Shown: positions 6,786 through 10,921 of the stretch, piece by piece
How the letters are laid out: each line of letters starts with the position of its first letter
How positions within the stretch are numbered: the stretch's first letter is position 1
From: a virus
Taxonomy: Duplodnaviria; Heunggongvirae; Uroviricota; Caudoviricetes
Direction: 5' to 3' (one strand)
Virus record (IMG/VR): IMGVR_UViG_3300029873_000373
Length of the DNA stretch: 17,506 nucleotides
Translations under genes and position numbers: made by a program
Notes under the pieces: generated by a model
Told to the model about the DNA's origin: nothing
Database searches by the model: none
Seen by the model: only the letters and a program-made list of their open reading frames with translations

Positions 6786-6976
6786 GGACGCACCTCCGCC
6801 GTAGTTACGTATTTAACCGGGCTACCTTTCATTGAGATGGTTTCACACATCTCTGCCGCTTTCAGTTCCGCTGTTTTTCTGGATTTATAGCGACGGTGCC
6901 AGACAGATACATCCGTGCGAACTGATACATCGTTTCTGTATTCCGTAGTGGAGATGATGATTTCGTAACTAATCAT
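6782..6976 (-). CDS. Hypothetical small phage protein (64 aa)
   Basis: ATG 6976 preceded by AAGGAGGT; ATGA overlap with the Rha-like gene stop. Confidence 0.45.
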   Translation of the reverse strand: MISYEIIISTTEYRNDVSVRTDVSVWHRRYKSRKTAELKAAEMCETISMKGSPVKYVTTAEVRP

Positions 6977-7833
6977 GGGCGAACCTCCTTGTCAGAACCA
7001 TTCAGCCTGGAATCAACAAGTGCAGCGCCAAAAACAGCATCACCAACACGGTCGTACAGTTTGCTAGCCAGCGGAGATTCAACGGCCTTAAGCATTGGAT
7101 AAAGCTGGCTTGTCCAGATTTGATGGATTTCACGCAAATGCAGGTATACGCCTCTGGCGTTTCGTGCGACAGCTGACATATCAGACGCATCGGCACCTGA
7201 TAAACTCTTCTCCATCAGGTTAAAGGCGTTGATGTATGCCTCTTTGAACCGGGCAGCACGTTTACCAGTGAAGCCCATGGCAAGAAACGCAAAACCGTCG
7301 CGGGTGATTTGGTAACAAGGGAGCTTGCGTGTACCACCGTTCGGTTGATTTACCGAAATCGATGTCTCCGCAAAATTGCGGGCACAAAACTCAGGGGAAC
7401 AATCCAGAGTGCGGATCTTTTTCAGCACATCGTCATGACGCTTGGAGAAGAAGTTGGCAACAGCCAAAGAAGTGGTAACGGCCTGGCCGTTGTCAATGGT
7501 GATTTCAGGTTGAGTGAGGGCTGGGATCGTAGCCATGATGGCAGCCTCCGTTGACAGTGAAAAACTTCCACCACCGGAAACGCCAATTTCACTGGTGGTG
7601 AACTGGACGGGGTTGGCGTAACCGGCGTCAACGGAGACCGGCGCACCTTTCGGTGCCCCCGCCCAGCCCACCATAATCTGGATGTGAGCAAATGCGGACG
7701 ATAAAAAAGACGCTGGCGCGTCATACATCGCCGTTGACAATTTCAGGACGCCAATCCCGGCACCCGCTTTATAAGGTGCGGAGACAGTGTAACGTCCCGG
7801 AATTGCAGAATCAATATGCTGGTGGCGGATCAT
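6973..7833 (-). CDS. Rha-family phage regulatory protein with a ~99-aa N-terminal module of unknown function
   Basis: Rha-like core ITIDNGQAVTTSLAVANFFSKRHDDVLKKI ... TRDGFAFLAMGFTGKRAARFKEAYINAFN; ATG 7833 has SD GGGAGGTG. An in-frame internal ATG at 7536 with SD GGAGG lies exactly at the module/Rha junction. Confidence 0.7.
   Translation of the reverse strand: MIRHQHIDSAIPGRYTVSAPYKAGAGIGVLKLSTAMYDAPASFLSSAFAHIQIMVGWAGAPKGAPVSVDAGYANPVQFTTSEIGVSGGGSFSLSTEAAIMATIPALTQPEITIDNGQAVTTSLAVANFFSKRHDDVLKKIRTLDCSPEFCARNFAETSISVNQPNGGTRKLPCYQITRDGFAFLAMGFTGKRAARFKEAYINAFNLMEKSLSGADASDMSAVARNARGVYLHLREIHQIWTSQLYPMLKAVESPLASKLYDRVGDAVFGAALVDSRLNGSDKEVRP
7537..7833. repeat. Copy 1 of a ~300-bp duplicated coding module (N-terminal domain of the first Rha paralog)
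   Basis: Near-identical DNA to 8193-8492, e.g. shared CCCGCTTTATAAGGTGCGGAGACAGTGTAACGTCCCG and GACGATAAAAAAGACGCTGGCGCGTCATA. Confidence 0.85.
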
Positions 7834-8492
7834 AGGTGCACCTCCCGTTGATTACGACGGAACGCGGAGTGACCCTGGACGGTTTCAGCCTCATGGAATG
7901 CTTCAATACAGCTCTCGTAGTACCGCATTGTGCGCAGACTTAACCCAAGCTGAAGCATCATCAGACCATCAAGGGTGATGTAATAACCACGCAGGGAGTC
8001 ACCGTAGATGTGATAAGTACCCGGTATGAAATTGCGGGTAAAAAACCCGCGTGAGCAGTTCAGATACTCGATTTTGTCAACGATGTTCTGGTGCATGCGC
8101 TTGAAATGGCAGGCAACATGCAGGGAGAAAATAACGGCCTTGCCGTTGACGACTTCGATTTTTAGGAATGGGGAAGTTAGGACAGTAGCCATGATGGCAG
8201 CCTCCGTATGCAATGGATAACTTCCACCACCGGAGCTGCGAAACTCATGGGTGGTGAACTGAACAGGGTTCGCAGTACCGGCGCATACGGAAACCGGCGA
8301 GCCTTTCGGCTCCCCTGCCCAGCCCACCATAATTCTGGCGTGCGTGAGCGCGGACGATAAAAAAGACGCTGGCGCGTCATATATCGCCGTATGCAATTCC
8401 GGGCTGCGACCCCCGGCACCCGCTTTATAAGGTGCGGAGACAGTGTAACGTCCCGAAATTGCAGAATCAATATTTGGTCTTGAAATGATCAT
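7830..8492 (-). CDS. Rha-family regulatory protein paralog (divergent Rha domain) carrying the same N-terminal module
   Basis: N-terminal 100 aa about 75% identical to the adjacent gene; Rha-like IEVVNGKAVIFSLHVACHFKRMHQNIVDKI. ATG 8492 has no SD; internal ATG 8192 has GGAGG and may be the true start. Confidence 0.6.
   Translation of the reverse strand: MIISRPNIDSAISGRYTVSAPYKAGAGGRSPELHTAIYDAPASFLSSALTHARIMVGWAGEPKGSPVSVCAGTANPVQFTTHEFRSSGGGSYPLHTEAAIMATVLTSPFLKIEVVNGKAVIFSLHVACHFKRMHQNIVDKIEYLNCSRGFFTRNFIPGTYHIYGDSLRGYYITLDGLMMLQLGLSLRTMRYYESCIEAFHEAETVQGHSAFRRNQREVHL
8193..8492. repeat. Copy 2 of the ~300-bp duplicated coding module
   Basis: Same as above; differences are substitutions only, many at third codon positions of the minus-strand frame. 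Confidence 0.85.
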
Positions 8493-8576
8493 ATAGCTGC
8501 TGATATCTTTAGAACTGTTCTTGGATGTTTCGGAGCCGTTTTATGCGAAACAGCTCCCCGTTATTGATGTTGAGTG

Positions 8577-8601
8577 AGCCGGGTTACTCCCGGCTTTTTT
8601 T
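8577..8601 (+). terminator. Intrinsic-terminator-like hairpin plus T7 run, oriented for the plus strand, between minus-strand genes
   Basis: AGCCGGG-TTACT-CCCGGCT followed by TTTTTTT (8595-8601), abutting the stop of the 8601-9308 gene; on the minus strand the hairpin is preceded, not followed, by the A/U run. Confidence 0.5.
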
Positions 8602-9308
8602 CACCGCTGCCAACCAATAACCTGAAATAACCCCATTTTCGGGTGATACCAGCGAGTCCCTCGCGGTTCTGCTTCCTCCATAATCCGATAAAAAGCAGCC
8701 ATAAACGGTTCCACAGCAACAATTGCGCGACGTGACAACAATCCGTCCGGCGTCATGAACTCATGGGTGTCTGTAGGAATCTGATAGGCGTTCACCAGAT
8801 TGCGGCATTTATCATCTGACAAACCGGTTTTTGCTTTCAGTTGGCGATATCCGGCATAGCCCTCACGAATAGTGCCCTTTTTAATTTGCTCGACTGTTTC
8901 AGCAACGTGGCTGACTTTTTCTTCCACCTGAGTGATCCGTTTCTGTTGGCGAACGGCTTCAAGAGCCATCGCGGCAACCATTTCGATTTCGCTCATTGGC
9001 TTACGGATCTGTTCTTCCAGTTCGCGCCAGCGATCTACCAGGCGAGCTGTGAATTCAGGACAGAGCTGTGCGACGACAATGATGCTGTCGCGCTTACCTC
9101 GTTCACCTTCGAATACATACGCGCTAGAAAATCGGCGAGGCCCAAGTGATTGTTTATTCTCAATTTCCACAGTCTGTGGAAATTGGATGATTCCCTTTTT
9201 AGCCAGTGTTTCAATAGTTCTCTTAACACTATCTGGTCGGCTTCCCACCAGCTCTGCGATCTCAACGCTGGTCATGGATGCTTTGCCGTTAAAAATTGCG
9301 GTGTTCAT
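8601..9308 (-). CDS. Rha-family phage regulatory protein (antirepressor-like)
   Basis: 235 aa; N-terminal MTSVEIAELVGSRPDSVKRTIETLAKKGII fits the Rha-domain pattern; coiled-coil-like middle; SD AGGAGA before ATG 9308. Confidence 0.7.
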   Translation of the reverse strand: MNTAIFNGKASMTSVEIAELVGSRPDSVKRTIETLAKKGIIQFPQTVEIENKQSLGPRRFSSAYVFEGERGKRDSIIVVAQLCPEFTARLVDRWRELEEQIRKPMSEIEMVAAMALEAVRQQKRITQVEEKVSHVAETVEQIKKGTIREGYAGYRQLKAKTGLSDDKCRNLVNAYQIPTDTHEFMTPDGLLSRRAIVAVEPFMAAFYRIMEEAEPRGTRWYHPKMGLFQVIGWQR

Positions 9309-9532: not shown

Positions 9533-9549
9533 TCTTTAGTCTCACGCCA

Positions 9550-9622
9550 GATACTTTGTTATCCAACGATGTTAACCATAGGAACCCAAAGTATCAAGAA
9601 ATTCTGTTACTTTAGTATCAAC
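9550..9622. promoter_or_regulatory. Rightward-operator/promoter-like region (divergent PR/PRM analogue) with repeated operator motif
   Basis: Motif CAAAGTATCAA at 9587-9597, TTTAGTATCAAC at 9611-9622 and inverted GATACTTTG at 9550-9558. Candidate minus-strand promoter: -35 TTGATA (rc of 9592-9597), 17-bp spacer, -10 TAACAT (rc of 9569-9574). Confidence 0.5.
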
Positions 9623-9643: not shown

Positions 9644-10300
9644 ATGAAGTCTTTAGGTGAACGTCTCATCAACGCACGGCAAAAAGCTGGGTTAACACAA
9701 GATGCGTTGGCTAAAAAAGCTGGGGTCACCAGAGTTGCAATAAGTAAAGCCGAGCAAGGCCTTACAAAAAGTTTCAACGGTGACACCCTTTTTAAAGTTG
9801 CAGCTGCACTGCGGTGTTCACCGCAGTGGCTTCAGAACGGAGATGAAAAAGATAAGCATTGGGAAAATAATGTTAAGAGCTGCCCACAGAGAGACACAGC
9901 ACACTCTTACCCTGTAATTAACTGGGTTCAGGCAGGATTATTCGCAACTTCTGGTGATGACTACAACATGTATGATCAGGATAATTGGAGGCATTCTGTA
10001 AAATACGCTGGTGAGAGGGGGTTCTGGCTGGAAGTGCACGGAGACTCAATGACTTCGCCCGTAGGAATAACATTTCCTGAAGGAATGTCGATCCTTGTCA
10101 ACCCAGATAAAGAAGTTTTTTCAGGGTGTTACGTCATCGCCAGAAAAAAATCCACCAATGAAGCAACATTCAAAAAATATATTTCTGACATGGGAAAGGC
10201 GTTTCTAAAGCCCCTTAATCCACAATATCCAATCATAGAAATGGACAATGATTGCGAAATAGTAGGTGTTGTGGTTGATGCCAGATGGGATATTTTCTGA
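9644..10300 (+). CDS. cI: CI-like prophage repressor (XRE-family HTH plus LexA/S24 peptidase-like C-terminal domain)
   Basis: 218 aa; SD GAGGAGAAG before ATG 9644; HTH LINARQKAGLTQDALAKKAGVTRVAISKAEQG; S24 catalytic context GDSM ... ATFKKY; divergent from the early-right operon. Confidence 0.9.
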   Translation: MKSLGERLINARQKAGLTQDALAKKAGVTRVAISKAEQGLTKSFNGDTLFKVAAALRCSPQWLQNGDEKDKHWENNVKSCPQRDTAHSYPVINWVQAGLFATSGDDYNMYDQDNWRHSVKYAGERGFWLEVHGDSMTSPVGITFPEGMSILVNPDKEVFSGCYVIARKKSTNEATFKKYISDMGKAFLKPLNPQYPIIEMDNDCEIVGVVVDARWDIF

Positions 10301-10338: not shown

Positions 10339-10386
10339 CCAAAGTATCAAAAATCACTTGCCACGACTTGATACCTTAGTTACCAT
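10339..10386 (+). promoter_or_regulatory. Leftward-operator/promoter-like region (PL/OL analogue)
   Basis: Same operator motif as the rightward region: CCAAAGTATCAA (10339-10350) and inverted TTGATACCTTAG (10368-10379). Candidate promoter -35 TTGCCA (10358-10363), 17-bp spacer, -10 TACCAT (10381-10386). Confidence 0.45.
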
Positions 10387-10417: not shown

Positions 10418-10921
10418 ATGATCAATAAAGCTACAACTCTTGACTGTCTCGAAGAACTGAAAAACCTCGGCAGCCTCATTACACTAATAGCAAAAGCAAC
10501 ACCTGATGCTACGCTCTCTAGCGATATAGAGTCATGCGCAGGACTGGCATGGGATATGACAAATAGCATATCCAGAAAGCTATCGTCAGCAATGCTTTTA
10601 CAGAACAAAAATTCTGCAATCAACAACCGTCTTCGCACCCAACGCGAAGCCTGCGGCTTAACAACCGCCGAACTCGCCAGGCTGCTCGATCTCGATGAAG
10701 AAATCATCATTCAGTGGGAGAGCGGAGAGTATGAACCAACCATCAGTATGCTTATCCCACTGGCAAATATTCTTGGCTGCGATCCGATGTGGCTGTTAAC
10801 TGGCGAGGTTACTCCTCCGGAGCAACCAAAAAGTGAGGAGCAGCAACACCATGACGCATCTCAACAAGTTTGCCCCTTATCTCGCGAAGCTCTTCTGCGG
10901 AAGAACCAATACCAATGGTGA
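10418..10921 (+). CDS. XRE-family HTH protein with ~70-aa N-terminal extension, in the position lambda N occupies
   Basis: 167 aa; SD TGAGGT before ATG 10418; HTH LRTQREACGLTTAELARLLDLDEEIIIQWESGEYEPTISMLIPLANILGCDPMWLLTGE; no arginine-rich N-like motif. Confidence 0.6.
   Translation: MINKATTLDCLEELKNLGSLITLIAKATPDATLSSDIESCAGLAWDMTNSISRKLSSAMLLQNKNSAINNRLRTQREACGLTTAELARLLDLDEEIIIQWESGEYEPTISMLIPLANILGCDPMWLLTGEVTPPEQPKSEEQQHHDASQQVCPLSREALLRKNQYQW

Follow-up and report, generated by a model that had tools for sequence, protein, structure and literature searches.

The window analyzed in this study is a 17,506-nucleotide stretch of viral DNA (Caudoviricetes; IMG/VR record IMGVR_UViG_3300029873_000373) that represents the early region of an Escherichia coli lambdoid prophage. 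Its leftward (minus-strand) operon is headed by a cro-like gene and continues with a gene termed here Ant/Roi-like (named Roi, DNA-binding protein, or Rha family regulator in related records), two tandem cassettes encoding the RNAs isrK and C4 together with an antirepressor (ant) gene, small open reading frames (ORFs), and O-like and helicase-type replication genes. A GC-rich hairpin followed by seven T's is located at the 3' end of the Ant/Roi-like gene, in the spacer that separates it from the first cassette. Over the 221 bp that surround the hairpin (8440-8660), several Stx2a- and Stx2d-converting phages and phage ASU11 match the window at 100% identity and PhiR49_2 at 99.5%, and the Stx2e phage phiP27 is related in the junction region. 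The evidence presented below suggests that the hairpin is the terminator of a self-contained rightward (plus-strand) unit that opposes the leftward early operon, and that this unit is most likely a previously undescribed countertranscript gene of the type of lambda OOP and P22 sar. Related phages carry the unit in three sequence types, designated A (the type of the window), B, and C.

The hairpin at the end of the Ant/Roi-like gene

The original prediction had read the hairpin and its T-run as a plus-strand rho-independent terminator, and the analysis bears this out by placing it as the best terminator-like site of the window. A consensus scan listed it first among 29 terminator-like sites. 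Such a scan carries much noise, as shuffled sequences alone would give 17.4 ± 3.4 sites, and a stricter test was therefore applied over all T-runs, in which the hairpin energy was calculated in the 30-nucleotide (nt) stretch upstream of each run of at least six T's on both strands (n = 23). The T7 at 8595-8601 has the most stable upstream hairpin of the 23 (-14.7 kcal/mol in the 30-nt window), followed by a runner-up at -9.0 kcal/mol, and the two Rfam-supported isrK terminators reach -8.3 kcal/mol in the same test. Only 0.37% of random 30-nt windows of the sequence fold at -14.5 kcal/mol or below, and about 0.085 chance cases would thus be expected over the 23 T-runs. The view that the structure is a chance inverted repeat beside a T-run can draw on the number of sites that the generic scan finds, but it can hardly be right given this expectation for a hairpin of such stability abutting a T7, the conservation of the stem with a variable loop, and the top-scoring promoter placed 67 nt upstream (see below).

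The hairpin of the plus-strand RNA has a folding energy of -14.5 kcal/mol, with an 8-bp stem in which six of the eight pairs are G-C. The adjacency to the stop codon of a minus-strand gene, also part of the original prediction, is confirmed with an overlap of one base: the last base of the T-run (8601) is the first base of the Ant/Roi-like stop (TGA as the reverse complement of 8601-8603). The RNA of the minus strand forms the hairpin at -13.4 kcal/mol, with A7 on its 5' side. What comes after the hairpin is CACUCAAC (one U in eight positions) in type A and CGCUCAAC in types B and C, neither of which is a U-tract. Intrinsic termination in the direction of the operon is thus not predicted and leftward transcription should pass, in agreement with the earlier view that early-right transcription would not be terminated efficiently here. 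An ordinary plus-strand gene that the hairpin could serve was also rejected, because the nearest upstream plus-strand ORF of any length (1-1083) is more than 7 kb distant and has a terminator-like hairpin of its own behind it (1221-1238).

A promoter-like site and a predicted RNA

Promoters were scored with an approximate, self-built sigma-70 position matrix, with a bonus for a TG dinucleotide, at every placement on both strands. The sequence TTGAAA-N18-TGaTATCTT on the plus strand (8480-8509) obtained 13.95 bits and ranked first among the 174,660 placements of the window. Types B and C, with the extended -10 element TGgTATTTT, score 14.42 bits. The PR-like promoter of the leftward operon received 12.68 bits and the isrK promoters 11.21 bits each, and the high rank of these expected promoters gives some confidence in the matrix. 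A consensus scan listed 18 promoter-like sites, among which only the one at 8480-8509 has a TG before the -10 hexamer. The best promoter-like and the best terminator-like sites of the window therefore share the plus strand, with no ORF between them and 67 nt from the end of the -10 hexamer to the terminator stem. Initiation is predicted at about 8516-8517. This conserved, top-scoring site favors the proposal, made in the original prediction, that the hairpin may end an antisense transcript arising within 8493-8576. The -35 hexamer of the minus-strand isrK promoter (8470-8465) is 9 bp from that of the plus-strand promoter, which places the two promoters back to back in a divergent arrangement.

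The RNA predicted from these two sites folds into a 5' tail, an internal hairpin (hairpin 1), a linker, and the terminator (z = -2.8), with a conserved 5' box that is unpaired or weakly paired in the predicted folds (Table 1). No ORF is contained in it. The sole ATG (8525) has no Shine-Dalgarno (SD) sequence, runs past the terminator to 8620, and is missing in type B, and the reading as a small-protein gene was rejected on these grounds. Rfam searches at gathering thresholds of the window and six related loci returned just isrK and C4, on the other strand. A scan of 8380-8720 at E ≤ 10 gave sub-threshold matches driven by the terminator, the best being sroD at 24.5 bits (threshold, 50), which covers the terminator end only. 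The sequences of the hairpin, the 5' box, and hairpin 1 found no relevant match in the searchable full texts of papers, and RefSeq annotates no RNA feature at this place, the Rfam-matched C4 and isrK included.

Table 1. Features of the rightward unit and of the surrounding early region (window positions)
Feature	Position	Strand	Remarks
-35 hexamer TTGAAA	8480-8485	+	6/6 identical in types A, B, and C
Extended -10 element TGaTATCTT	8501-8509	+	TG 8501-8502, hexamer 8504-8509; 18-bp spacer to -35
Predicted non-coding RNA, ~85 nt	8517-8601	+	Antisense to the spacer between the Ant/Roi-like gene and the isrK promoter
Conserved 5' box GTTCTTGGAT	8517-8526	+	At or near the predicted start; candidate seed or single-stranded 5' end
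Internal hairpin 1 GGAGCcGTTTTatgcGAAACaGCTCC	8532-8557	+	Predicted fold; hairpin kept across types
Conserved single-stranded box ATGTTGAGTGA	8567-8577	+	Just 5' of the terminator; ACGTTGAGCGA in types B and C
Predicted intrinsic terminator	8576-8601	+	Stem arm GAGCCGGG (8576-8583), loop TTACT (8584-8588), closing arm CCCGGCTT (8589-8596), T7 (8595-8601)
isrK promoter TTGATT-N17-TACACT	8442-8470	-	11.21 bits; start 8435, where the Rfam isrK match begins
Ant/Roi-like gene, 235 aa	8601-9308	-	phrog_63 (anti-repressor Ant), E = 4e-46; weak Rha/HTH Pfam matches
cro-like gene	9532-9305	-	First gene of the leftward operon
PR-like promoter	9597-9569	-	Drives the leftward operon; next to cro; 12.68 bits
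cI-type repressor	Likely start 9644	+	S24 and HTH domains
Cassette 1 RNAs	isrK 8435-8359, C4 8334-8247	-	Rfam; antirepressor gene follows
Cassette 2 RNAs	isrK 7779-7703, C4 7678-7591	-	Rfam; antirepressor gene follows

Conservation among the three types

The stem and a run of six to eight T's are present in all of the approximately 120 related copies examined, which represent 20 distinct sequences. The core GCCGGG/CCCGGC is constant with the exception of one C-to-T (G-U) variant, GCTGGG (loci L064 and L107), and the loop is free to vary (TTACT, TCACTA, TTACTA, TCACTC, and CCACTC). A comparison of types A and B found the promoter preserved in its -35 hexamer (6/6), its TG, and its -10 hexamer (5/6), with 10/18 identities in the spacer and 2/7 between the -10 hexamer and the 5' box. 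In the body of the predicted RNA, the 5' box is identical (10/10) between flanks of 2/7 and 2/5, hairpin 1 retains about 12/26, the box before the terminator 9/11 next to a linker of 5/9, and the stem arms 6/6 and 6/6. The values for the 5' box and the -35 hexamer also hold for type C, and the 10/18 of the spacer and the 9/11 of the box before the terminator apply to type A against both others. One variant of the 5' box was seen (GTTCTTGGCT), and two rare ones at the -35 element are TTGGAA, inside the hexamer, and a C-to-A change one base upstream of an unchanged TTGAAA. The sequence of hairpin 1 is replaced by GGCCTGCtttatGCAGttGCC in type B and GGCttaCTTCtttgtGAAGttGCC in type C while the hairpin itself is kept, and types B and C differ there by one compensatory pair (G-C to U-A). 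At the sequence level, the combination of a kept promoter, boxes, stem, and T-run with a diverged remainder is the pattern that would be expected of a small RNA (sRNA) gene transcribed by sigma-70 polymerase on the plus strand.

The phage phiP27 and 16 related contigs have a different hairpin at the same place (GGCCGG...CCGGCC followed by TTTCTTATTT), preceded by TTGATT-N18-TGaTATTGT (12.5 bits) in the same geometry, although the surrounding sequence is otherwise unrelated. The RNA predicted there, of about 60 nt, would cover the SD sequence and the GTG start codon of the next ant gene (L15), which is a sar-like geometry. The phiP27 arrangement (L004, 2436-2530) is shorter, with the promoter-like site within the first codons of L15 and the hairpin and T-rich tail at the stop codon of the homologue of the window's Ant/Roi-like gene.

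These data also bear on the idea that the unit is a fossil, that is, the leftover promoter and terminator of a lost plus-strand moron or other gene at a mosaic junction, with no present function. The locus is indeed a module boundary with at least three arrangements to its left (types A to C, L15 of phiP27, and an abutting ORF), and shared ancestry could explain part of the conservation, as the copies all come from closely related E. coli prophages. We nevertheless regard a fossil as very unlikely, since all 20 variants have intact promoter hexamers, stem, and T-run despite a divergence of about 30 to 50% in the body between types, the slippage-prone T-run is never shorter than six, and the different hairpin of phiP27 still forms a stem with a T-rich tail.

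Distribution of the unit

The gap after the Ant/Roi-like stop codon was compared in about 80 close relatives among viral contigs. It is occupied by type A, B, or C of the unit or is missing, with the next ORF abutting. Approximately 237 of 5,426 complete E. coli genomes carry the unit (about 4%), 204 of them as type A, and the carriers include Stx2a-, Stx2d-, and Stx2e-converting phages and prophages of ST131, O111, and O26 strains. Type A is found, for example, in E. coli O111:H- 11128 (NC_013364, 2,433,094-2,433,204), O7:K1 CE10, O26:H11 FWSEC0001, and isolates of ST131. The type of the unit does not covary with the C4 specificity loops.

The unit appears to belong to neither of its neighbors. 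Among 125 contexts of the isrK promoter, it was found in 43, always beside an Ant/Roi-like gene, and the other 82 have different upstream neighbors and no hairpin; a feature of the isrK module was rejected accordingly. More distant Ant/Roi-like homologues in Yersinia, Providencia, Proteus, Atlantibacter, and Klebsiella phages, in phi467, and in the P1-like phage D6 are abutted by the next gene, again with no hairpin, which argues against a feature of the Ant/Roi-like gene itself and indicates an inserted unit. Its length is approximately 125 bp, and its borders are the Ant/Roi-like stop codon and the -35 region of isrK. No further copies outside this context were found by nhmmer over 1.8 Mb of fetched loci or by a pattern scan of the viral contigs.

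Other arrangements of the same gap were also seen. In Stx1a and some Stx2a phages (L002 and L003, 2500-2727), approximately 230 bp replace the element and read as the N-terminal part of an annotated Ant ORF; this segment abuts the Ant/Roi-like stop codon (GGTAATTATGCTCAC...) and has no hairpin. In five loci (L103, near 4666; L113; L159; L125; and L195), a divergent protein gene precedes the isrK promoter instead of the element. The L103 protein begins MNYTIEYYSEEV and, in our impression, presumably resembles a RelE/HigB-type toxin. Palindromes are located between the divergent gene and the isrK promoter, either ATAAC-N6-GTTAT or CTTGTTGT...ACAACAAG (L125 and L195).

Proposed mode of action

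We propose that a sigma-70 promoter with an extended -10 element would start an RNA at about 8516-8517 and that the hairpin and U7 would release it at about 8599-8601. With release at the Ant/Roi-like stop codon, the countertranscript would enter neither that gene nor cro, the operators, or cI. Transcription of the leftward operon, started at the PR-like promoter, would pass the hairpin to reach the isrK-C4-ant cassettes and the replication genes, and its read-through mRNA could pair with the countertranscript over about 85 nt, in the gap from the Ant/Roi-like gene to isrK. The resulting duplex may be cleaved as RNase III does for OOP and cII, which would lower the expression of the Ant/Roi-like gene, uncouple the downstream genes, or both. 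Strong leftward transcription would probably shut the countertranscript promoter by interference, making the RNA mainly a product of the lysogen. An additional role in trans through the invariant 5' box is conceivable.

On balance we judge it probable, though by no large measure, that a short plus-strand transcript starts at the 8480-8509 promoter, ends at the hairpin, and acts in cis on the read-through mRNA. The bare existence of the transcript is somewhat more likely than this full account, and the cis-antisense role by itself is considerably less likely than the full account. Another version is possible but doubtful: the unit may be an sRNA gene expressed in the lysogen and inserted backwards, which head-on transcription from the PR-like promoter would turn off at induction and which would combine control of mRNAs of the host or the prophage in trans, through the invariant 5' box GUUCUUGGAU, with cleavage of the read-through early mRNA in cis. 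Owing to the head-on switch-off, the RNA would then report the state of the immunity switch and add a third RNA layer, beside IsrK and C4, to the control of a three-gene antirepressor array.

A possible partner in trans was seen within the window. The sole extra complement (CTCACTCAAC/CUCACUCAAC) is a perfect match of 10 nt to a conserved box of the predicted RNA, at 7518-7509 (minus), in codons 7 to 10 of the true ant2. It belongs to one ant allele, which accounts for 20 of about 99 type A loci, and types B and C lack it; the match is therefore probably due to chance. These codons were rejected as a target because most type A phages do not have the complement and types B and C show no covariation. 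A duplexfold scan of translation start regions returned just unrealistic long-range structures.

The arguments for and against a plus-strand RNA

Several points weigh against the account given above. The promoter, the start site, and the termination are predictions from sequence. The promoter matrix is an approximation and the TG bonus a choice; when the bonus is omitted, the site drops to 11.95 bits, so that the PR-like promoter (12.68) overtakes it and a plus-strand site at 10358 (11.92) draws level, which still leaves it in the top three. The diversity is low, with three types and minor variants, and the covariation is correspondingly thin at one compensatory pair. All of the approximately 120 copies are in one context, and the comparison cannot separate the unit from its neighbors. 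The RNA overlaps the Ant/Roi-like coding sequence by 1 to 3 nt, compared with about 50 nt of cII for oop, so that an effect of the OOP type is less obvious, and a conserved trans target was not found in the phage sequences. Hairpin 1 of type A shows two one-sided changes (GGAACC and CAGAGCC) that pair in the minus-strand RNA only, and the minus-sense RNA of this type has a very clean fold (z = -5.2).

Two hairpins are predicted on either strand, and the one-sided changes of the stems were considered as evidence of the strand. Two independent changes of the terminator stem, GCTGGG (L064 and L107) and GGTCGG (the phiP27-type locus L225), would be U-G in the plus-strand RNA but C-A in the minus-strand RNA, and a third change that pairs in the plus-strand RNA alone is located in hairpin 1 of type C. 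With the two type A changes on the other side, the count is three to two, and the wobbles do not decide the strand. We favor the plus strand because the conserved T-run, the invariant stem with its free loop, and the promoter have no role on a minus-strand RNA.

If the minus-strand RNA were the functional one, the hairpins and boxes (CUCRCUCAAC and AUCCAAGAAC) would form a cis element of the early-right transcript, such as a 3' stabilizer of the Ant/Roi-like mRNA, a processing site, or a put- or nut-like signal for read-through of the two isrK terminators. The location of the element in the first intergenic gap after the PR-like promoter, upstream of the terminators at 8378-8359 and 7722-7703, would suit such a role, as would the clean folding, in which the minimum free energy structure makes up 51% of the type A ensemble and types B and C have z values of -3.1 and -3.7, and the two type A variants. 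We consider this reading improbable. In every form, including that of an RNA stability element, which was the second option of the original prediction, it leaves the conserved T6-T8 run and the top-ranked plus-strand promoter unexplained, and the three stem changes that pair just in the plus sense speak against it. Related Stx1 and Stx2 phages, moreover, have the Ant/Roi-like gene followed by isrK without the element, yet the same terminators.

The antitermination form of this reading was compared with known nut and put signals. A lambdoid nut site was rejected, because the loop (AGUAA/UAGUGA) is not GNRNA and the conserved box follows the hairpin and does not precede it like boxA. No second copy of the hairpin, as expected for a nutL/nutR or putL/putR pair, was found within two mismatches in a sensible place in the window, and no N-like protein was found among the 10 early ORFs scanned. 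The put RNA of HK022 consists of two adjacent stem-loops approximately one base apart, downstream of both early promoters. Two hairpins are predicted in the minus-strand RNA, 19 nt apart, and no second copy was found. A search of the phage collection revealed no DNA similarity to HK022.

The remaining explanation takes the hairpin as an insulator that stops stray antisense transcription, including that from 8480-8509, from entering the Ant/Roi-like gene, cro, the operators, and cI, with the RNA as a by-product without a role. The terminator does lie exactly at the gene boundary, where it would shield the immunity region, and the failure to find an RNA target and the restriction of the unit to this context fit as well. 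We still think an insulator unlikely. An accidental promoter is cheaper to lose by mutation than a terminator is to keep by selection; the -35 hexamer, the TG, and the -10 hexamer are kept beside a spacer that is not; and an insulator has no need of the 10-nt 5' box and the 11-nt box before the terminator, both of which are kept. The balance of the evidence thus leaves the plus-strand countertranscript as the reading that we prefer.

Other observations on the early region

The two cassettes (8435-7830 and 7779-6973, minus) resemble tandem immI modules and differ in their specificity sequences. In cassette 1, the C4 loop is CCGUAUGC, and the matching GCAUACGG is found in isrK-1 and at the SD sequence of ant1 (CAUUGCAUACGGAGG); the corresponding sequences of cassette 2 are CCGUUGAC for the loop and GUCAACGG for isrK-2 and the SD sequence of ant2. 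Related phages have one to three cassettes, with CGATAAC and CTTGATC as further loops. The ORFs assigned to Pfam Phage_ASH (7830-8492 and 6973-7833, minus; "ash family protein" in RefSeq) are in-frame 5' extensions over the isrK and C4 genes, and the "Ash" domain consequently looks like translated RNA genes rather than a real protein domain. The true starts of the ant genes are likely the ATG codons at 8192 (ant1) and 7536 (ant2), each behind an SD sequence GGAGG with which C4 can pair.

The isrK terminators (8378-8359 and 7722-7703, minus) consist of GACGCGCCAGCGTC and T6 and stand in the path of early-right transcription before it reaches the O-like and helicase-type replication genes. These genes can be transcribed from the PR-like promoter only by read-through of both terminators; otherwise, another promoter serves them. 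At the other end of the operon, the listed start of cI (9569) leaves 36 bp (9533-9568) before cro. The ATG at 9644, behind GAGGAGAAG, is a likelier start, with an operator region of approximately 110 bp that contains the PR-like promoter. A CII-like HTH regulator (10418-10921; phrog_4836, E = 1e-40) is encoded downstream of cI on the same strand, and the second-best plus-strand promoter-like site (10358) is located before it.

Comparison with known systems

The prophages of pathogenic E. coli encode stand-alone short RNAs with intrinsic terminators, and the predicted RNA shares this character with HnrS/EcOnc10-12, AgvB, AsxR, and StxS, Hfq-type sRNAs carried by lambdoid prophages (PMC13502914, PMC12197685). 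Of these, HnrS/EcOnc10-12 is a different RNA, which is 66 nt long and encoded in the late region (PMC13502914). No relation of the predicted RNA to described sRNAs was found in Rfam or in the searchable paper texts. The usual layout of an Hfq-dependent sRNA comprises a single-stranded 5' box, an internal hairpin, a U-rich linker, and a terminator with a U-tail. The predicted RNA has the U7, the internal hairpin followed by a U-rich linker, and the invariant 5' box, a resemblance of layout only. The sequences that follow hairpin 1 are UUAUUGAU in type A, UGUAUCAA in type B, and UUUACCAA in type C.

The neighborhood is the one in which c4 of P1 and P7 and IsrK of Gifsy-1 reside, since two Rfam-supported pairs of isrK and C4 lie directly to the left of the unit, which places it in an RNA-rich region of antirepressor control. 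The biology of IsrK and C4 has been described (PMC4825925, PMC12197685). Both are RNAs of the operon (minus) strand that arise from the ant leader by processing or termination, whereas the predicted RNA is encoded on the opposite strand, divergently from the isrK promoter, and is unrelated in sequence. The upstream context in the Gifsy-1 IsrK paper also differs, being antQ.

A second comparison is with sar of P22 immI (68 to 69 nt), likewise a small antisense RNA of an antirepressor region, whose promoter faces transcription of the ant operon and whose pairing with ant mRNA represses the synthesis of antirepressor (PMC12197685). The RNA predicted in the window differs from sar in that 8517-8601 covers no ribosome-binding site, ant1 (likely start 8192, SD GGAGG) being located downstream of isrK and C4; coverage of an SD sequence and start codon in the manner of sar is seen just in the phiP27 variant. 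The setting is also different, because the ant genes are already under C4-type RNAs here. No Rfam match to sar, if its model is in the library, came from the search at gathering scores or from the scan of 8380-8720 at E ≤ 10.

The closest analogy is with lambda OOP, an antisense RNA to cII mRNA that acts through RNase III (PMC12197685). Both would be short non-coding countertranscripts against the PR operon with a TG-extended -10 promoter of their own and a strong hairpin and T-run at the 3' end of an early regulatory gene. As a control, the same scripts were run on lambda 37800-39300, where they picked PR on one strand and pO (TTGAGT-17-TGtCATAAT, 11.7 bits) on the other, together with the oop hairpin (-15.1 kcal/mol, T6) and an RNA of 77 nt; the corresponding values of the window are 13.95 bits, -14.5 kcal/mol, T7, and about 85 nt. 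Homology with oop is unsupported, as global alignment gave z values against shuffles of 3.7 (type A), 3.5 (B), and 1.8 (C), compared with 8.6 to 14 among types A to C, and the score derives largely from shared terminator features. The positions differ as well. OOP is flanked by cII and O, with an overlap of about 50 nt into the cII coding sequence, whereas the predicted RNA lies between the Ant/Roi-like gene and an isrK-C4-ant cassette and reaches the stop codon only.

If the RNA is real, it is an undescribed countertranscript in the lysis-lysogeny control region of an E. coli prophage family, adjoining three antirepressor-type genes and two C4/IsrK cassettes, and its 85-nt gene has been wholly missed by current annotation. 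It could influence the frequency of induction, and hence the release of toxin, in Stx phages. Unlike that of lambda, the operon of the window has no cII gene, and the predicted RNA would then be a functional analogue of lambda OOP in phages that have neither cII nor oop at the usual place.

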